From Deltaproteobacteria bacterium (GTDB lineage: Bacteria > Myxococcota_A > Polyangia > Nannocystales > Nannocystaceae), in NCBI GenBank assembly GCA_016709225.1, contig JADJEE010000012.1, positions 2,051,630 to 2,115,629 on the forward strand: DNA of 64,000 nt. The letters are read 5' to 3'. Positions within the stretch are counted from its first letter, which is position 1, and every line of letters starts with the position of its first letter. Both the position numbers and the translations under genes were made by a program. This document shows positions 55,035 through 64,000 of this stretch, piece after piece. The notes under the pieces are model-generated. The model made no database searches. It was not told the origin of the DNA and worked only from the letters and a program-made list of their open reading frames with translations.

Positions 55035-55277
55035 GACCTGCTGACTCGCGAGGCGTCCAGCTGATCACGCGATCGTGCGATGACGTCGGACCCAGCCGCG
55101 ATCGCGATCGAACGGCCATTGCGCGCGGGCGTTCGTCCCACGGACGAGTCACCGATGACGGATTCGCCCGGTCGTGGGCATTGCTCGCAGGACGAAGGCC
55201 GGAACGCGGTCGGGCGGACGCGTGGGCGTCCGCTGTGGGCGAGCAATTGGACGCGCGGGTGCGCGAAGGAGGCGAGC

Positions 55278-57803
55278 GTGGCGGTGGACAACAAGCTGAT
55301 GGGTACCTGTCTGGTGTTTGCGATGGTGGCTGCGTGCGACGACCCGGGCGACGCTGGCGGCGATACCGGCGAGGTCGACGCGCGCGCAGGCCACCATGCA
55401 CAGGGGCAGGTGTGCGAGCCAATCGACCTCGATCCGCGTCGTGCGATCTTCGAGACCAACGTCGCAGTGCTCGAGCCGTTCACGCTGCGGGCGGTGCTCC
55501 ACCACGCGGCCAAGAACGCCGGCTATCGGGTCGATGCCGATGACGCCTACCAGCGCCTGATCGACACCTACGCAACCGCGGCGCAGGGTCGCTTCGATGG
55601 GCAACACTGCGACGACGAGCAGCCCGATCCATCGTTCACCGATCCGAACCTGCCGTGCGGCCTGCTGGGCTGCGATCAGGAGTTCTTCTGCGCCGCCCAC
55701 GAACCCGCGTGCTTCTCGTGCGCGGCCGACGGGCATGCGTGTCAGCCCAGCACCGGCCTCGACCCCGGGGTGCACGAGGTGTGCGGGTTCGGACCCGACG
55801 GGCTGGAGCTGTGCAGCTTCGACGGACGTCAGGTGACCGACTGCGTACCAGCGCCCGAGGGTGCGTGCGACGACGCAGGCTGCGACTCGCTGGGCTGCGA
55901 TGCAGTGACGCTGTGCGACACGAGCTTCGAGCTGTGCATCACGTGCACGGCCGAGCTCGACCAGTGCCGAGTCGATCAGGGCGTCACGGACGAGCCCGTC
56001 GAGACGGTCTGCCGCGACGTCGACGCGTGCCAGTTCGACGTCGATGCCGGCACGGTCTCGGGCTGCGAGCCCGACCCCGCGTGCGAGCAGGCGCAGTGCG
56101 GCGCGCTCGGCTGCGATCAGCAGTTCTTCTGCACCACCGACTTCAACTTCTGCTTCGCGTGCAGCGAAGACCTCTTGCAGTGCGAGCTCGACGGGCAGGC
56201 CGTGCCGTCGCCCTCGCAGGTGTGCAACTTCTCGACCAACGAGGTGTGCGAGTTCTCGGACGGCACCGTCGGATCGTGCGCCACCGACACCGAGGGCCTG
56301 TGCTTCGGTGGCGGCGGTGGCGAGGGCGGGACGACCGACGCGAGCGACACGTTCACGAGCTTCGGCTTCATCTCCGATGGCGAGGCCGGGGGCTCGGAGG
56401 TCGGCAGCGAGGTCGGCGGCGACTTCACCGGCACAGGCGGTGTAGAGGGCAGCGCCTCGGCCACCGCGACCGGTCCCGGCGACGGCTCGGCCACCGCGAC
56501 GAGCGACGGCGGCAGCTTCGGTGACGGCACGAGCTTCGGCAGCACCACCACCTTCGGCGACGGCGGCAACGACGGCGGCGGCGCGGGATTCGGAGCGATC
56601 GACGGCTACCCGCTCGAGTGCCCGCGCGCCGAGGCCGACCAGATCGACAACATCGACGCGTGGTTTCCGATCTCGATCAGCAACCGCTTCGACCACGCGC
56701 CCGAGGACGGCGCCAACTGTGGCCAGCAGCGCATCGTATTCGCCAACAACGCGCAGAATCGCATGTTCATGATCTTCGAGGCGGTGATCCCCAACCCGAA
56801 CCCGGGCTGTGGCATCGAGGCGTGTCGCCCCGTGGTCGAGTTCTGGGCCAAGATGAACGACATCACCGACGTCGATGTGCGACGGCGGCAGCTGAAGAAG
56901 GCGTTCCTCACCGGCCACCCGAAGCTCGAGGCCGCTGGCTTCGGACCGTTCATCGACGCGCGCAACTTCGCGTTCGGCACCGGCCAGGTGCGGACGAACA
57001 ACTTCGATCAGGGCCCATGGACCCTGCGCGAGTACAAGCTGGTCGAGCAGCCACGACCAGGCAAGAAGTCGCTGATGCACGCGGCGCAGGTGCCGGTGAC
57101 GTACAGCCCGATCGGCGATCACTTCAATGACGCGCTCGAGACCCCGCTCGGGCCCGAGTGTCGCGAGAGCTTCCTGGTCGCGATGGAGGGCCTGCTCACT
57201 GATGAACCCGACGCGATGAGCTTCCCGATCGACCCGATGTGTCGCGCCGCCGAGAGCCGTGACGACGGCGTATCGGACTTCGCCCAGCAGCTGGTGCTCG
57301 GCACCGGTGCGTTCGAAGCGGCCATCGAGGCCCGCCTCGACGAGCTCGGCTCGTCGCTGACGGCGATCGACATCGCGCAGCGGGCCCACTTCGCGGGCGC
57401 CTGCATCGGCTGCCACGAGCAGAGCAACGGCGCCGATCTCGGCAACGGCGTGGTCGCGCCGTTCTCGGCCGGCTTCACCCACAGTGTCGAGTTCTTCACC
57501 GAGGAGTGCTTCGACGGCGAGCAGTGCTTCGCGATCTCGGACGCACTGACGTCGAGCTTCCTGCCCCATCGCAAGGCGGTGATGGAGTCGTTCCTCGCGC
57601 AGACGCCGTGCCAGGGCCAGTGCTCGTACGAGCTCGAGTACGGGCCCACCAGCGAGCTCGTCGCCGGACCGATCGACGTGCGCCGCGCACTGACGCGCGA
57701 CGGGCGACTCGACGTGCAGCGAATGCTCGAGCTCGAACGACGCACGCGTGCGGCCGGGGCCCAGCGCACGCTCGGCGGGCAGTCGACGCGCAGCGGCCAC
57801 TAG
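55278..57803 (+). CDS. large secreted Cys-rich repeat lipoprotein with Gly/Ser/Thr/Asp linker and about 400-aa C-terminal domain
   Basis: A GTG at 55278 lies 5 nt after GAAGGAGG. The signal peptide is ...MGTCLVFAMVAACDD (lipobox). Repeated CGxLGCDQxFFC units are followed by a GGGGEGGTTDASD...GGNDGGGAGFG linker and a C-terminal domain with conserved Cys pairs. Confidence 0.7.
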   Translation: MAVDNKLMGTCLVFAMVAACDDPGDAGGDTGEVDARAGHHAQGQVCEPIDLDPRRAIFETNVAVLEPFTLRAVLHHAAKNAGYRVDADDAYQRLIDTYATAAQGRFDGQHCDDEQPDPSFTDPNLPCGLLGCDQEFFCAAHEPACFSCAADGHACQPSTGLDPGVHEVCGFGPDGLELCSFDGRQVTDCVPAPEGACDDAGCDSLGCDAVTLCDTSFELCITCTAELDQCRVDQGVTDEPVETVCRDVDACQFDVDAGTVSGCEPDPACEQAQCGALGCDQQFFCTTDFNFCFACSEDLLQCELDGQAVPSPSQVCNFSTNEVCEFSDGTVGSCATDTEGLCFGGGGGEGGTTDASDTFTSFGFISDGEAGGSEVGSEVGGDFTGTGGVEGSASATATGPGDGSATATSDGGSFGDGTSFGSTTTFGDGGNDGGGAGFGAIDGYPLECPRAEADQIDNIDAWFPISISNRFDHAPEDGANCGQQRIVFANNAQNRMFMIFEAVIPNPNPGCGIEACRPVVEFWAKMNDITDVDVRRRQLKKAFLTGHPKLEAAGFGPFIDARNFAFGTGQVRTNNFDQGPWTLREYKLVEQPRPGKKSLMHAAQVPVTYSPIGDHFNDALETPLGPECRESFLVAMEGLLTDEPDAMSFPIDPMCRAAESRDDGVSDFAQQLVLGTGAFEAAIEARLDELGSSLTAIDIAQRAHFAGACIGCHEQSNGADLGNGVVAPFSAGFTHSVEFFTEECFDGEQCFAISDALTSSFLPHRKAVMESFLAQTPCQGQCSYELEYGPTSELVAGPIDVRRALTRDGRLDVQRMLELERRTRAAGAQRTLGGQSTRSGH

Positions 57804-57933
57804 CAGCCGGCGTGCGGGCCTGGACTCGCCAGCGCAGCACGCGTGGCACGTCGGGGGGACGGAGGCTCGCAAGGGCCCCGACCTCCGGACGTGCGCCATG
57901 GGGCACGCCCACCTGCTAGGCTGCGCAGCACCG

Positions 57934-58545
57934 ATGTCCGGAGACCCATCGTTGCGATGTCGCTGCGGCTCTGTGCGGGGCCGCGTGGTCGAGCTGTCAC
58001 CCGCGAGTTGCTCGCGCGTGGTGTGCTACTGCCGAGACTGCCGCGCGTACCTGCGGTGGCTCGGCGCCGACGCACTGCTCGATGCCTACGGCGGCACCGA
58101 GATCATCCAGCTCGCGCCGCGTCAGCTGACGATCGAGCACGGCGCGGAGCAGCTGCGTTGCGTTCGCCTGAGCGAGAAGGGCCTCATGCGTTGGTACGCC
58201 GCGTGCTGTCGCACGCCGGTCGCCAACGCGGTGTCTGGCAAGGTACCGTTCATCGGGGTCGCCAAGGCGATGCTGCCCGAGGTCGGCGACGCCGAGGTCG
58301 GAGCCGCGATCGGCATCCACGGCCGACTCGCCCCCGGTGGCTGTCCGCCCGGCGTGCATCCGCGGGGTCCGCTCGGCCTGGTGTTGCACGCCTCGCGACT
58401 GATGTTGCGCTGGTGGTGGCGTGGCATGGGCCAGCCGTCGGCGTTCTATGACGAGCACGCGCAGCCCCGCGTGGTGCCCGAGGTACTCGGTGCCTCGACG
58501 CGCACGTCGCTGGCCGAGCGGGATCGCATCGCGACCCCGGCTTGA
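57934..58545 (+). CDS. GFA-like Cys-rich (CxC...CxC...CxxC) zinc-binding protein
   Basis: MSGDPSLRCRCGSVRGRVVELSPASCSRVVCYCRDCRAY...YAACCRTP resembles the glutathione-dependent formaldehyde-activating (GFA) / CENP-V fold motif spacing. Confidence 0.5.
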   Translation: MSGDPSLRCRCGSVRGRVVELSPASCSRVVCYCRDCRAYLRWLGADALLDAYGGTEIIQLAPRQLTIEHGAEQLRCVRLSEKGLMRWYAACCRTPVANAVSGKVPFIGVAKAMLPEVGDAEVGAAIGIHGRLAPGGCPPGVHPRGPLGLVLHASRLMLRWWWRGMGQPSAFYDEHAQPRVVPEVLGASTRTSLAERDRIATPA

Positions 58546-58680
58546 TGCGCCGCGAAAGCCGTGCCGCAGGCACGTCGCCACGGCGCACATGGTGACGCCC
58601 CCGCCGGCCACGTGGCGGCGGCGGCTCGGCGGCTGCCTTCGACTTCGTCGGTGCTCCACGGCTTGCATCGTGCTCGGACC

Positions 58681-58848
58681 ATGAGCCGCGCCATCTGGAA
58701 GGGTCAAATCTCGTTCGGGCTGGTGCAGATACCGGTTTCCCTCGTCAAGGCTGAGGAAACCCACGATCTCGATCTGCACCTCGTCGATCGTCGTGATCGT
58801 GCTCCCATCGGGTACGAGTGCATCAACAAGAACACCGGCGAGCCGTGA
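58681..58848 (+). pseudogene. ku: Ku (NHEJ DNA-end-binding) N-terminal fragment, truncated by TGA after 55 codons
   Basis: MSRAIWKGQISFGLVQIPVSLVKAEETHDLDLHLVDRRDRAPIGYECINKNTGEP-stop matches the Ku N-terminus (MRAIWKGxISFGLVNIPVKLY...). Weak Ku-like text continues in frame after the stop (TDEWVG..TRYERVSAARDELVLV) but is overrun by the convergent BON gene. Codon usage is unusually AT-rich for this genome (ata, gtt, gct, gat, cgt). Confidence 0.6.
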
Positions 58849-58922
58849 ACGGATGAATGGGTGGGGACCCGCGACGTCCGCGGACCCCCACCAGGTTCGT
58901 CTGCTCCCGCTACTGCTACGCG

Positions 58923-60074
58923 CTACGAGCGGGTGTCCGCGGCGCGCGACGAACTCGTGCTCGTCTGCGCCGCGGTACTGCCAGATGTGCTGGTCGCGTT
59001 GCGACCGCTGTTCGCGCCCGAGTCGCTCGACTGCGAGCCACTGGTCCGCAGCTGGTTGTGGCACTCCTTCACGCCACGGGCAGCGCACACACAGTCCTCG
59101 ACCTGTCGCTTCACCGAGCGACCGCTGACGGTCCCCTTCAGCGTGACCTCGCCGTCCTTCACCGACACGTCGACGTCACTGGCATCGAGGCCCGAGTCCT
59201 CGAGCATCTCGCAGACGATCTCACGGACTCGATCATCGGATCGGGTGAAGTTCTTGGGGCTGTACGTCTGTCGCTGTTCGCCGCCCATGTTGCCATGGGA
59301 GCCCCGCCCGTACTCGCTGCCGCTGAAGCTGCCCTGCTGGCGTCCGCCGCCGAAGTCATCGCGGCCTCCCAGGCGCTCGCGATCGTAGCGACCACCGCCG
59401 AACCGGCTCCCGCCGTACTCGCTACCATAGGTGTGGCCATACGGGCCAGAAGGCCTCCCGGGCCAGTCGCCGCGCTCATGGCTGTAGTGCTGCGGGCTCG
59501 AATCGTACTGACGATGGTAGCGACCGCCATCCCACGGACTGTCGTCCATGCCGCGCCCAGCCGAGTAGCGGGCATCCCTGCCCGACGCCAGCGGTCGCTC
59601 GTCGAAACCACGCGACCTCCCGAAGTCGCGCGACCCGTAGTCGCGCGGACTGTACTCGCGCTGTCCATAGCTGCCGTCACGTGCACCCTGCCCGCGAGAT
59701 CCGAAGTCGCGCTGCCACGGCTCGCGCTGCCAATCCTCGGGCTGCCACGATTCGCGCTGCCAGCCCTCGCCGCGCCACGGCGTACGCTGCCAGCCCTCGC
59801 CGCGCGAGACGTCACGCTGCCAGTCGTCGCGGTGTTGCCAATCATCGCGCGAGGTCCTCGAGTCATCGCGCGAGGTCCTCGAGCCCCAGCCCGGCGCGTC
59901 GTCGAATTGACCGCTGGCGCCCCGCTGATATCGACCGCCGTCGCGATACTCGGAATCGCGATACTCGGAGTCGGGATATCCCTCGCGACCGCCGCGGTCG
60001 AACTGCGGACGCGACCGCATCGATTCGTCCTCGTACCTGTGCTGATGTCGGCGTCCATTCATGTCGTGTGTCAT
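58923..60074 (-). CDS. BON-domain protein with long disordered R/D/G/Y/W-rich N-terminal region
   Basis: C-terminal TRSDDRVREIVCEMLEDSGLDASDVDVSVKDGEVTLKGTVSGRSVKRQVEDCVCAARGVKECHNQL is a BON (OsmY-like) domain. The N-terminal 280 aa are repetitive (SEYRDSEYRDGGRYQRG, DWQRDVSRGEGWQRTPWRGEGWQRESWQPEDWQREPWQRD). Confidence 0.75.
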   Translation of the reverse strand: MTHDMNGRRHQHRYEDESMRSRPQFDRGGREGYPDSEYRDSEYRDGGRYQRGASGQFDDAPGWGSRTSRDDSRTSRDDWQHRDDWQRDVSRGEGWQRTPWRGEGWQRESWQPEDWQREPWQRDFGSRGQGARDGSYGQREYSPRDYGSRDFGRSRGFDERPLASGRDARYSAGRGMDDSPWDGGRYHRQYDSSPQHYSHERGDWPGRPSGPYGHTYGSEYGGSRFGGGRYDRERLGGRDDFGGGRQQGSFSGSEYGRGSHGNMGGEQRQTYSPKNFTRSDDRVREIVCEMLEDSGLDASDVDVSVKDGEVTLKGTVSGRSVKRQVEDCVCAARGVKECHNQLRTSGSQSSDSGANSGRNATSTSGSTAAQTSTSSSRAADTRS

Positions 60075-60807
60075 GGCCTGTGCTTTCTCTGTCTGCCAGC
60101 CGGCGAGCGGCATGGGCGAGTCGTGGAGTCGTCGATATGAGCCCGCGCGAGCGACGCGGGAGGCAGTTTCAAGTGCACGCGCAGTCCAGGAGCTTCGAGG
60201 TGCTCTTCCACGAAGTGAACGAGGCGATTCAGATCCTCGGTCCATGCGAGGTCGCTTCGAGCGAGGCCCGGATTTGCAACCCCCGAGCCAAGCCGTCTCC
60301 GCGGATCGAGGGCGTTGGATGGGTATGCCTGCCGCGCACGATTGCCTCCTCTGGTCCTCCGGAGATCGCCGGAGATCGCCGCGTACAGCGACTTGCGTCG
60401 CGGGCGATTTCGCGCGATCGATTCGATCTGCACCGTGGCAAAGTCGTCAGCGAGAATCGTATGCGGCGGCGGACTTCGATCCGTCGACCACGATCGGCGC
60501 GGACGACCCGTCTGAGCGGATCCGCGGCAGGGTGGTGTGCAATGCGTGTGCCCCTTGGCCACGTCGGACGATGTGGCGTGCCGCTGGGCGTCGATCGGCT
60601 CCGATCCCTGCGCGCTCGCGCACGTCATGCTGCAGGCGTGATCTTCTTGTCGAGCCGCATCGAGTGCCATGGGCAAGTGTTCACGGCAAGCGACTGGGCA
60701 GAGATCAGCAGATGCCCCTATCCAATCGATCGGGGCTCGACGCTTTCGGGTCGCTGAATGACGACCTCGCTTGCGCGCCGGGCCGCGCGGCGCAGTCTGT
60801 CGACTCC

Positions 60808-61920
60808 ATGTCCACGTCCGACAACGTCCGATTCGCCGTCGTTGGCCTCGGCCACATCGCTCAGGTCGCGGTGCTGCCGGGCTTCGCTCACGCCGAGGCG
60901 GCGCAGCCGGTCGCGCTCTTCAGCTCCGATGCCGCGAAGCGCCGCGCGATGTCGGCGCAGTACGGTGTCGATCACGCGTACGACTATGATGAGTACGATC
61001 GCGTGCTCGAACAGGGTCTCGTCGACGCTGTGTATATCGCCCTACCCAATCATCTCCACTGCACGTACGCAGTGCGTGCCGCGGAGCGTGGCGTGCACGT
61101 GCTGGTCGAGAAGCCGATGGCGGTCGATGCCACCGAGTGCTTGGCGATGATCGAGGCCGCCGAAGCAGGAGGCGTAAAGTTGATGGTCGCATATCGCCTC
61201 CACTTCGACCCTGCGAACCTCGAGGTCATCGAACTGGTCCGCAGGGGCCGGCTGGGCCGCCCGCGACTGTTCTCCTCTGTGTTCTCGCAGGTCGTCGTGC
61301 CCGGCAACGTCCGGCTGGTAGGGAGCGATCGCGGCGGCGGGCCGGTCTATGACATGGGCGTCTATTGCATCAACGCCGCACGCTACGTCTTTCGCGACGA
61401 GCCGACGCAAGTCGTTGCGCTCGCGGCGTCGGTTGATGATCCCCGCTTTCAGGGTGTTCCCGAGATGGTGAGCGCCACGCTTCACTTCCCCGGCGAGCGC
61501 CTCGCGACGTTCACATGCAGCTTCGGCGCGGCCGACAGCTCGCGCTACGAGATACTCGGCGATCGCGGGCGCCTCGTGATGGAGCCCGCGTTCGAGTACG
61601 CCGAGGGCCTCCGCTATGCGCTGCAAGTGCAGGACGCAGATCCGGAGGTACACAGGTTCGGCAAGCACGACCAGTTCGGGGCGGAGCTCCAGTACTTCAG
61701 CAAGTGCATCCTCGACGACCTCGCGATCGAACCGGATGGGCTCGAGGGCCTCGCAGACGTCAACGTCGTGCAGGCGATCCATCGCTCGGCACAGGAGCGA
61801 CGTGCAATCGCCGTGCTCCCGGTGCAGCGAGAACGGCGGCCCGAACACGCTCAGGCCTACCAGCTGCCGCCAGTCCCCAAGCCCAAGACCGTGAACACCC
61901 GATCGCCCAGCGGAGATTGA
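60808..61920 (+). CDS. Gfo/Idh/MocA-family NAD(P)-dependent oxidoreductase
   Basis: VRFAVVGLGHIAQVAVLPGF Rossmann N-terminus, ALPNHLH, EKP, and a C-terminal alpha/beta domain. Confidence 0.8.
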   Translation: MSTSDNVRFAVVGLGHIAQVAVLPGFAHAEAAQPVALFSSDAAKRRAMSAQYGVDHAYDYDEYDRVLEQGLVDAVYIALPNHLHCTYAVRAAERGVHVLVEKPMAVDATECLAMIEAAEAGGVKLMVAYRLHFDPANLEVIELVRRGRLGRPRLFSSVFSQVVVPGNVRLVGSDRGGGPVYDMGVYCINAARYVFRDEPTQVVALAASVDDPRFQGVPEMVSATLHFPGERLATFTCSFGAADSSRYEILGDRGRLVMEPAFEYAEGLRYALQVQDADPEVHRFGKHDQFGAELQYFSKCILDDLAIEPDGLEGLADVNVVQAIHRSAQERRAIAVLPVQRERRPEHAQAYQLPPVPKPKTVNTRSPSGD

Positions 61921-61959
61921 CCTGCCCGAGCGAACGACCTCGACGAGGAGAACGCCACC

Positions 61960-62394
61960 ATGCCCCGCGGATCCAAAGACGCCTACACCGACAAGCAGAA
62001 GCGACAGGCGGAACACATCGAAGACAGCTACCTCGAAGAGGGTGTCTCGAAGAAAACCGCCGCGGCGCGCGCCTGGGCCACCGTCAACCGTCAAGACCAC
62101 GGCGGCAAGAAGAGCGGGTCGGGCCGTGCCAAGCGGCGCACGACCAAGAAGACCGGACGCAAGACAGCAACGAAGAAGCGCCCGTCATCGAAGAAGCGTT
62201 CATCCACGAAGAAGCCCTCATCCGCGAAGAAGCCCTCATCCGCGAAGAAGCGTTCATCCGCGAAGAAGCCCTCATCCGCGAAGAAGCCCTCATCCGCGAA
62301 GAAGCGCCCGTCATCGAGGAAGCGTTCATCCGCGAAGAAGCGTTCATCCGCGAAGAGGCGCTCGTCCGCGAAGAGCCGCTCGGCTCACGGATAG
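61960..62394 (+). CDS. ChaB-like N-terminal domain fused to Lys-rich histone-H1/AlgP-like repeat tail
   Basis: MPRGSKDAYTDKQKRQAEHIEDSYLEEGVSKKTAAARAWATVNRQ resembles ChaB-family text (..KE.A.RIAWAAVK). The tail is (P/R)SSAKK x about 12. Confidence 0.6.
   Translation: MPRGSKDAYTDKQKRQAEHIEDSYLEEGVSKKTAAARAWATVNRQDHGGKKSGSGRAKRRTTKKTGRKTATKKRPSSKKRSSTKKPSSAKKPSSAKKRSSAKKPSSAKKPSSAKKRPSSRKRSSAKKRSSAKRRSSAKSRSAHG
62200..62390. repeat. tandem 24-nt coding repeats (gaagaagc(c/g)(c/t)tcatccgc...)
   Basis: Seven or eight near-identical units, generating several spurious overlapping ORFs on both strands. Confidence 0.7.
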
Positions 62395-62544
62395 GGCGCG
62401 ACCCGCCGGACCTGTCCGGCGCTTCATCGGAGGGTGATCCCTGAGGCCTGACGGCTCGCTCGCGCGGGGGTGGATGGCGCGTCAGAATCTCCGCCGAAGC
62501 TGGCCGTGACTTCGCGCGCGGCGTACCCTTGGAACTCGCTGCTC

Positions 62545-63720
62545 ATGGCCCTCACGACGACCAGCCACGACATGACACTGGCGAGACAGCTGGCCTGGCA
62601 GGCGGCGATCGTCGAATCGTGCCCTGACGCGATCATCGGCATCGATCTCGACGGGGTCGTCGTGAGCTGGAATGGCGCCGCGGCGCGATTGCTCGGGTAC
62701 GCGTTCGCCGACATCGTCGGGCGACCGTGGCGAACGTTGCTGCGCACCCACTCGGGCGAGGAGCCCTGCGCGCGCATGGCCGACTTGCTCCAAGGTGCCC
62801 CTGGCAGCACCATCGAGTTGATCGATCGCACCGGCGCCCTCGTGGACGGCGTTGCGACGCTGTCGCCGATTCGCGATCGCTCGGACGCGACCATCGGCGC
62901 GTCGATCATCGTGCGCCCACCGGGCCGATGCGGGCCAACCGCCGACAACGACGAGTTCCTCTCGACGCTATCACATGAGCTGCGGGCGCCACTGCACGCG
63001 ATACTCGGGTGGGCGCAGGTGCTGGAGCACTCGGCCACACCGTCCATGCGGCACGGACTCGCGATCATCGAGCGCAACGCGCGACTGCAGGCGCAGCTGC
63101 TCGAGGACCTACTCGACGTCGGGCGGGGGAGCTCGGGCAAGCTACGCCTCGAGATCGCACCGGTCGATCTCGGCACCATCCTCTCGGAGCGCGTCGACTC
63201 GATTCGGCCCGCCGCCGAGGCCAAGCGGCTCGAGCTCACGCTTCGAAGTCCTTCGTACCATTGTGAGGTGCTGGGCGACGCCACGCGACTGCAGCAGGTA
63301 CTCTGGAACCTGCTGTCGAACGCGGTTCGGTACACTGCGCCGGGCGGCCGCGTCGAGGCTTCGCTGCAGGGTGGGCCAAATGGATTTCGAATCGAAGTGA
63401 CAGATTCCGGTGTCGGCATCGATTCCGAGTTCCTACCGCACGTCTTCACCCGGTACGCGCAGGCGCATGCACCGACCGGTGAGCAGGGCGGTCTCGGGCT
63501 CGGCCTCGCCATCGCTCGACAGCTGGTCGAGCTACATGGAGGCACGGTCACTGCCGCGAGCGACGGCCCCGGCCGCGGCTCCACCTTCACGGTGACACTG
63601 CCGCGGGTGCCCGAAGCCCCGCGCCCGCGCATCGATCGACGCTCGAGCGCACCCGCGACCGTGGGCGCTCGAGCGTCGGGCGCCCACGGCCAGGCCCGCA
63701 GCCGCCTGCGCCCCGCGTGA
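62545..63720 (+). CDS. PAS-domain sensor histidine kinase (HisKA + HATPase_c)
   Basis: PAS-like IVESCPDAIIGIDLDGVVVSWNGAAARLLGY, an H-box LSHELRAPLHAILGW, an N-box LQQVLWNLLSNAVRYT, and G1/G2 boxes DSGVGI...GGLGLGLAI. The start is at 62545 or 62572. Confidence 0.8.
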   Translation: MALTTTSHDMTLARQLAWQAAIVESCPDAIIGIDLDGVVVSWNGAAARLLGYAFADIVGRPWRTLLRTHSGEEPCARMADLLQGAPGSTIELIDRTGALVDGVATLSPIRDRSDATIGASIIVRPPGRCGPTADNDEFLSTLSHELRAPLHAILGWAQVLEHSATPSMRHGLAIIERNARLQAQLLEDLLDVGRGSSGKLRLEIAPVDLGTILSERVDSIRPAAEAKRLELTLRSPSYHCEVLGDATRLQQVLWNLLSNAVRYTAPGGRVEASLQGGPNGFRIEVTDSGVGIDSEFLPHVFTRYAQAHAPTGEQGGLGLGLAIARQLVELHGGTVTAASDGPGRGSTFTVTLPRVPEAPRPRIDRRSSAPATVGARASGAHGQARSRLRPA

Positions 63721-63768
63721 GCGTTCGGCCGCTCCATCGCGGACGGACGCTGCGTGTTCATCCGCTGC

Positions 63769-64000
63769 TCAGCACAGGCCGATGCCGAGGTCGCAGACGC
63801 ACACCATCGACACGCACTCGGCGGTGCAGCTGTCGGCCTCGCTGCAGCCGATGACGCAATCGCTGCCGCACGTCAGCGTACAATCGCTGCCGGTGTGACA
63901 GCTCTGATTGCAGCTCTCGGCGCAGTCGAACGTGCAGTCGCCACCATCGCAGCTCTGCTGGCAGTCCGCGCCGTTGCAGGTGAAGTCACAGGTCGCCCCG
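63769..64000 (-). CDS. Cys-rich repeat protein, C-terminal part only (gene continues beyond window end)
   Basis: The minus-strand translation is ...CDFTCNGADCQQSCDGGDCTFDCAESCNQSCHTGSDCTLTCGSDCVIGCSEADSCTAECVSMVCVCDLGIGLC-stop, a regular Cx3-4C repeat. It is not in the ORF track because it is truncated. Confidence 0.5.
   Translation of the reverse strand, partial: GATCDFTCNGADCQQSCDGGDCTFDCAESCNQSCHTGSDCTLTCGSDCVIGCSEADSCTAECVSMVCVCDLGIGLC

Follow-up and report, generated by a model that had tools for sequence, protein, structure and literature searches.

A truncated ku gene fragment at the edge of a variable block in a Nannocystaceae genome

Genes of the locus and identity of the 55-codon reading frame

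The DNA analysed here is a window of 64,000 nucleotides, in whose coordinates all positions are given, from contig JADJEE010000012.1 of a metagenome-assembled genome (MAG) of the family Nannocystaceae (GCA_016709225.1). Near its right-hand end, a 55-codon open reading frame (ORF) lies between a DUF6151 gene and a convergent BON-domain gene, at the edge of a small block of stress-type genes that is variably present among close relatives and has a lower GC content at third codon positions (GC3) than the rest of the window (Table 1). The exact product of the ORF, MSRAIWKGQISFGLVQIPV...NTGEP, has the database entry 'MAG: hypothetical protein IPH07_33710 [Deltaproteobacteria bacterium]'. It corresponds to the N-terminal part of bacterial Ku, a protein that binds DNA ends and works with LigD in prokaryotic non-homologous end joining (NHEJ).

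Table 1. Features at and around the ku fragment, in window coordinates
Feature	Coordinates	Strand	Remarks
DUF6151 (GFA-like) gene	57898-58545	+	Left neighbour of the fragment; synteny anchor
Variable lower-GC3 block	58550-63762		Ku remnant, BON, GFO/IDH/MocA oxidoreductase, Lys-rich protein, PAS-histidine kinase
250-nt segment	58585-58834	+	96 nt 5' of the ATG plus Ku codons 1-51; missing in L028/L029, where 28 unrelated nt stand instead
Ku N-terminal remnant	58681-58848	+	ATG at 58681, 55 codons, TGA at 58846-58848; Ku homology over codons 1-55 (58681-58845)
Junction	58835-58849	+	Last four Ku codons (ACC GGC GAG CCG) and TGA, in sequence also present in the Ku-less sister species (CCGGCTGGCCGTGG)
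GC-rich hairpin	58850-58905		Between the convergent ORFs; conserved in the sister species
BON-domain gene	58923-60020	-	365 aa as called in 8 assemblies; Pfam BON E=2.6e-12; N-terminal half repeat-rich; stop codon 58923-58925; convergent with the Ku remnant
GFO/IDH/MocA oxidoreductase	60712-61920		Block gene
Lys-rich 144-aa protein	61960-62394	+	Block gene
PAS-histidine kinase	62545-63720		Block gene

The full product of the 55 codons, MSRAIWKGQISFGLVQIPVSLVKAEETHDLDLHLVDRRDRAPIGYECINKNTGEP, is matched by the NCBIfam model of bacterial Ku, TIGR02772 (Ku_bact), with an E-value of 2.2e-16 and 60.1 bits over profile positions 1-52 of 259, and by the Pfam Ku70/Ku80 beta-barrel model PF02735 with an E-value of 5.8e-5 and 23.5 bits over positions 1-46 of 190. 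Both scores are under the curated cut-offs of these models (150 and 25 bits, respectively); an intact relative reaches 280 bits over positions 1-259 of TIGR02772. When 1.84 billion representative proteins were searched exhaustively with phmmer (E<=1e-3), 1426 matches were returned, every one of them to the N-terminus of a Ku protein, with identities of 82-85% for the best matches and a 314-aa Ku (82%) at the top. The intact ku genes of two Nannocystaceae MAGs, L010 and L009, encode proteins 87% and 78% identical to the fragment, the former with 81% nucleotide identity over the 55 codons, and further Ku proteins from metagenomes are 85-87% identical. The similarity to Ku is genuine and well above chance, and the first-pass annotation of this DNA, which had described 55 codons matching the Ku N-terminus and then a TGA, was right in this respect.

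The arrangement DUF6151 - 55-aa ORF - BON is present in 8 independent assemblies, comprising 3 from NCBI and 5 Logan assemblies of public runs, all of them at least 99.9% identical to the window. These assemblies, including the short-read Logan ones, agree base for base over the junction at the end of the ORF. Clustering at 90% identity places the 55-aa product in a cluster of its own, with 1 member sequence among 5.8 billion clusters. No Shine-Dalgarno-like motif is present in the 15 nt 5' of the ATG, a consensus promoter scan found no promoter-like site for the ORF, and no known RNA family of Rfam was detected within 58300-59200.

The truncation point and the syntenic loci of the sister species

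Aligned codon by codon with the intact ku genes of L010 and L009, the fragment stays colinear up to and including codon 55 (GAG CCG at its end) and is unrelated thereafter. The missing part of the gene was sought by tblastn with 5 full-length Ku proteins and one three-domain LigD, the targets being the whole window and L001-L004, which extend the search by 4.8 kb to about 68.8 kb in window coordinates. Every Ku alignment ends at residue 54-55. Residues 56-310 of the L010 Ku have no match in any frame, no second Ku is encoded in any frame, and neither the rest of ku nor ligD was found to have moved beyond the block within the DNA searched. Rescue by correction of an indel or a frameshift was also tried, and three-frame translation together with the five tblastn queries gave nothing past residue 55. 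Since only residues 1-55 match and no other frame contributes, the gene is not recoverable by indel correction, and its description by the first-pass annotation as a decayed remnant is borne out. The remnant covers about 20% of the Ku domain. It lacks the DNA-encircling ring, the dimerisation interface and the C-terminal arm that recruits LigD, and it would therefore be unable to act as Ku.

The same annotation had reported that no ligD is nearby, which is also the outcome of the searches made here: the best hit of the L010 three-domain LigD in the window has an E-value of 2.7, and the extension is likewise negative. In every relative for which DNA was examined (L010, L024, L025, L026, L107 and L111), ku heads an operon and is directly followed by ligD with its phosphoesterase, ligase and primase-polymerase domains. 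Among the 5421 Ku homologues passing the threshold, none of the best 120 is located on the source contig (3.67 Mb).

The sequence beyond codon 55 can be compared with two syntenic loci of a sister species, L028 and L029, which were found by scanning metagenome contigs with the neighbouring DUF6151 gene. The genes on both sides are well conserved between the sister species and the window, with identities of 96% for the upstream 907-aa protein, 83-85% for DUF6151, 91-93% for the BON protein and 96-97% for the GFO/IDH/MocA oxidoreductase. However, the spacer between DUF6151 and BON is 160 nt long in the sister species versus 378 nt in the window. In the alignment, homology between the two continues to position 58584 and restarts at 58835 (58580 and 58834 as blastn breakpoints), so that the intervening segment with nearly all of the ku fragment is missing in the sister species. 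The end of Ku homology falls within the rearrangement junction 58835-58848 in both the codon alignment and the sister-species alignment. Since the last four codons, the TGA (TGG in the sister species) and the hairpin that follows are common to the Ku-less sister, the stop of the remnant is supplied by spacer sequence. Over an 11-nt stretch at this right-hand junction, the Ku sequence and the sister spacer agree at 8 of 11 positions. The junction (58835-58849) may represent microhomology at the site of joining, or else the final piece of the remnant that both species still share. The remnant is also missing in a third lineage, L104, which, like L028 and L029, has the same gene order.

These comparisons do not agree with two further statements of the first-pass annotation. 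Faint Ku-like text had been read in frame past the stop, but tblastn ends at residue 54-55 and the sequence from about 58835 onwards is shared with the Ku-less sister species. In particular, a post-stop 'TDEWVG' was considered as a relic of the Ku motif 'AWEDIV' and rejected, the bases in question forming the left arm of the hairpin that is common to both species. The fragment had also been described as overrun by the 3' end of the BON gene. The BON stop lies 74 nt downstream of the Ku TGA, with the conserved hairpin between them, and there is no overlap with the remnant; only the last 8 bases of the interval that had been assigned to the fragment touch BON. The C-terminus and stop of the BON protein are the same in the sister species.

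The hairpin has a predicted folding energy of -37 to -44 kcal/mol on the plus strand, with z-scores of -3.6 to -4.2, and its minus-strand form is a perfect 14-bp stem immediately 3' of the BON stop. It is probably a 3'-end or terminator structure of the BON gene. The stem is strong and conserved but has no U-tract or T-run, and it is for this reason that the consensus terminator scan, which was negative, misses it.

The N-terminal half of the BON protein (59300-59990, minus strand) is a long low-complexity stretch with many R, D, G, W and Q residues and repeat units resembling RDDWQ and GEGWQR. Only the C-terminal part (about the last 90 residues aligned, 255-339 of 365) resembles a 160-aa BON protein encoded directly upstream of ku in L026, with 53% identity.

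Composition and erosion of the block

In the fragment, GC content is 58% and GC3 is 0.745, compared with a GC3 of 0.90 +/- 0.05 in the 31 other genes of the window. Only 0.9% of the 55-codon windows of these genes are at or below 0.745, so that the codon usage of the fragment differs from that of the bulk of the window (p about 0.001-0.01). In contrast to this bulk, the four genes to the right of the fragment (BON, oxidoreductase, Lys-rich protein and kinase) have a GC3 of 0.79-0.81, and 11.8% of their 55-codon windows are at or below 0.745; compared with these, the fragment is no outlier (binomial p=0.16). The block as a whole has a GC content of 0.65-0.67 versus 0.70 elsewhere. The claim of atypical third-position codons made in the first-pass annotation is thus valid with respect to the window at large and fails with respect to the four right-hand neighbours. 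The same 55 codons have a GC3 of 0.855-0.927 in seven intact relatives, while GC1 and GC2 of the fragment equal those of the relatives, which indicates that most of its 'low GC' is due to the amino-acid composition of Ku. The agreement in GC3 between the fragment and the block genes suggests that ku was a long-term resident of the block. It would then have been a functional resident of this lower-GC3 environment that was truncated comparatively recently.

Comparison with the seven intact relatives identified 12 lineage-unique substitutions in the fragment, 8 of them synonymous and 4 non-synonymous. The direction of change is from GC to AT in 9 of the 12 and from AT to GC in none. Three of the unique changes, E16Q, E29D and R47C, affect residues that are invariant in the relatives.

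The block has been eroded in several ways among close relatives. The whole 5.2 kb corresponding to window positions 58550-63762 is missing from lineage L104, which shares 97% identity with L029; here the DUF6151 stop is followed by 20 nt and then by the stop of the next minus-strand gene (L104:1679-1690). Furthermore, about 1 kb of the PAS-HisKA-HATPase kinase gene is missing from L028, where a 180-nt piece is left (L028:4410-4784, equivalent to window 62381-63564), which makes the kinase another gene of the block in decay. The absence of 58585-58834 from L028 and L029, the absence of the block from L104 and the loss of the kinase in L028 together mark the segment as deletion-prone. The two edges of the block share no repeat of 7 nt or longer, no integrase or transposase is present among the gene calls, and no tRNA or terminal repeat marks it. 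The genes of the block are about 91% identical to those of the sister species at the nucleotide level, similar to the flanks (88-95%), which implies that the block is older than the split of the two species.

Several other features of the region deserve mention. The 690-nt spacer between the divergent BON and GFO/IDH/MocA genes (60021-60711) has the lowest GC content of the region (0.63-0.65) and contains long ORFs on both strands without a Pfam match; it could be regulatory or represent another decayed gene. In the 144-aa protein, a conserved N-terminal part is followed by a tail built from tandem KKPSSAKK / KKRSSAKK units, which gives the protein a histone-like, lysine-rich character. It matches no Pfam or NCBIfam family and is 88% identical in the sister species. 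The region is flanked by genes for two cysteine-rich proteins without a Pfam family, namely, a protein of 882-907 aa with many C-x-x-C-like motifs on the left (55155-57803, plus strand) and a 244-aa protein on the right (63763-64000, minus strand), whose 3' end is at the window edge.

Origin of the fragment and comparison with known systems

The ORF is probably a non-functional relic of a Nannocystaceae-type ku, a pseudogene in a deletion-prone segment, and a probability of roughly 0.7 is assigned to this reading. We infer that an ancestor may have carried ku, probably together with ligD in an operon, at the left end of the block. A deletion or rearrangement would then have removed everything past ku codon 55, presumably the rest of ku and ligD, fusing the stump to the hairpin located 3' of the convergent BON gene, so that the frame would now run into a TGA of non-Ku sequence and the remaining ORF would encode only the first beta-strands of the Ku core. 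Relatives would have eroded the stress-type block further, losing the remnant in the sister species, most of the kinase in one sister contig and the whole block in the third lineage.

Several observations weigh against this history. The search for DUF6151 homologues found no outgroup with a full ku-ligD between DUF6151 and BON. These homologues drop from 83% to 54% identity with none between, and the 54% homologue (L105) is located in an unrelated context with a PIN-domain gene. The intact ku genes of L009, L010, L024, L025, L026, L106, L107 and L111 are found in other neighbourhoods, none beside DUF6151; a BON gene adjoins ku in L026 and is near it in L025, although in an arrangement that differs from that of the window. 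With two lineages for comparison, a single insertion of 250 nt is at least as parsimonious as two deletions in succession. The 28 nt that replace the segment in the sister species were examined as a possible derivative of Ku codons 33-39 and rejected: the score was reached by 4 of 500 shuffled sequences but also by 6% of real genomic segments and is not significant, so this filler does not demonstrate a former presence of the remnant in the sister species. Its matches to LigD are at chance level only. With regard to decay of the fragment, the unique changes are enriched at third codon positions (8/55 versus 4/110, Fisher p=0.02), suggesting that most of them arose under protein-level constraint, and support for neutral decay after truncation is thin. 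The 8 copies of the ORF all represent one population and are thus uninformative on constraint.

An ancestral DUF6151-BON spacer free of Ku would reverse the direction of the event. In this case, the 5' region of ku with its 96 upstream nucleotides would have been copied or captured into a break in the lineage of the window, with the microhomology CCGGC..GCCG as the joining site, and would be non-functional filler DNA such as illegitimate recombination or end joining can leave behind. This explanation, the main rival, is unlikely on balance but draws on several of the same data, since one event is enough to account for an intact 160-nt sister spacer with 28 unrelated nt at the site, the right junction falls in the 11-nt stretch where Ku and the spacer largely agree, and ku beside DUF6151 was seen in no relative examined. 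However, a copy of a resident intact ku would be expected to have a GC3 near 0.9, whereas the fragment at 0.745 matches the adjacent block; the 96 nt 5' of the ATG are unlike the upstream regions of intact ku genes (which are not conserved among themselves either); and deletions are demonstrably common in the segment. A foreign origin, which the first-pass annotation had favoured, would have brought the fragment, possibly with the whole 5.2-kb block, from a lower-GC donor, with truncation on or after integration. The GC3 and GC content of block and fragment relative to their surroundings, and the presence or absence of the block among close relatives, are what such a transfer would leave, and to this extent the departure from the bulk of the window described in that annotation is real. 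The closest Ku relatives, however, are from the same family (78-87% amino-acid identity, up to 81% at the nucleotide level), the block predates the split from the sister species, and neither mobility genes nor border repeats are present. An origin outside the family in a low-GC donor is thus not indicated and is regarded as improbable; transfer of the fragment and the 5.2-kb block within the Nannocystaceae is possible.

The ORF has no interruption between ATG and TGA and is called by gene callers in 8 of 8 assemblies, and in a 138-aa Ku from another organism (P0003) the same 47 N-terminal residues are retained and run directly into the C-terminal arm. These facts would be in line with an expressed 55-aa micro-protein, for example one pairing with or poisoning a full-length Ku encoded elsewhere. 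Yet the stop and last codons of the ORF belong to spacer sequence common to a species without it, neither a ribosome-binding nor a promoter signal was recognised, residues invariant in Ku are substituted, and the ORF is missing in the sister species and forms a single-member cluster, all of which make a functional micro-protein very unlikely. The metagenomic source of the genome also raises the matter of a frameshift or chimeric join in a long-read assembly; the same sequence over the junction in 8 independent assemblies from different samples, with no Ku sequence following in any frame, rules out such an artefact for practical purposes. The stronger claim that the fragment is either filler DNA at a repaired double-strand break or a Ku-derived micro-protein modulating full-length Ku elsewhere is given very little credence. 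If the former were true, the 5' end of an NHEJ gene would itself be the scar of end joining, and if the latter were true, P0003 would hint at a recurring class of shortened Ku proteins.

Among the intact relatives, the ku-ligD pairs of L024, L025, L026, L106 and L107 are located amid stress and signalling genes, including those for BON and YtxH proteins, a Phage_holin_3_6-family membrane protein, response regulators and a sigma factor. This hints at a stationary-phase or stress neighbourhood of NHEJ in the clade of these relatives. P0003 (L110:50-466) is a 'mini-Ku', in which Ku residues 1-47 are joined directly to the C-terminal arm with deletion of the whole beta-barrel core; its gene is immediately upstream of the ligD start on a 719-nt contig, so it reflects a real internal deletion or an assembly artefact.

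The non-functional relic proposed here shares its Ku clade with P0003 (87% identity across 46 residues) and, like it, breaks near residue 47-55. Unlike P0003, which keeps the C-terminal arm and a downstream ligD and occupies another locus in another organism with 79% nucleotide identity, the fragment ends within the N-terminal region. Compared with complete bacterial Ku (TIGR02772, PF02735), its residues 1-55 align with the profile start and are as similar to intact Nannocystaceae Ku as described above, while it falls short of both family cut-offs, represents a minor part of the domain and has no adjacent ligD. It is well documented that NHEJ has been gained and lost many times across bacteria, with repeated secondary losses (Sharda et al. 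2020, PMC7719229). The locus fits this pattern, a ku stump being what such a loss leaves, and it documents one loss, or at least the erosion, of a ku-ligD copy in a Nannocystaceae lineage.

A further parallel is provided by truncated pseudogenes arising from deletional loss in bacterial genomes. Like these, the fragment is an unrecoverable 5' stump in a segment with more deletions in relatives, and the substitutions unique to it favour GC-to-AT changes and include some at invariant residues. It differs from them in that the intact ancestral state at the exact site is not observed, and in that the time since inactivation seems short relative to the divergence accumulated under constraint. IPH07_33710 would be better annotated as a ku pseudogene fragment, marking the edge of the small variable block, than as a hypothetical protein. 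The locus neatly illustrates stepwise decay by deletion but is of little importance beyond annotation and opens no new question, and the fragment is a kind of feature already known, the ordinary footprint of gene loss.

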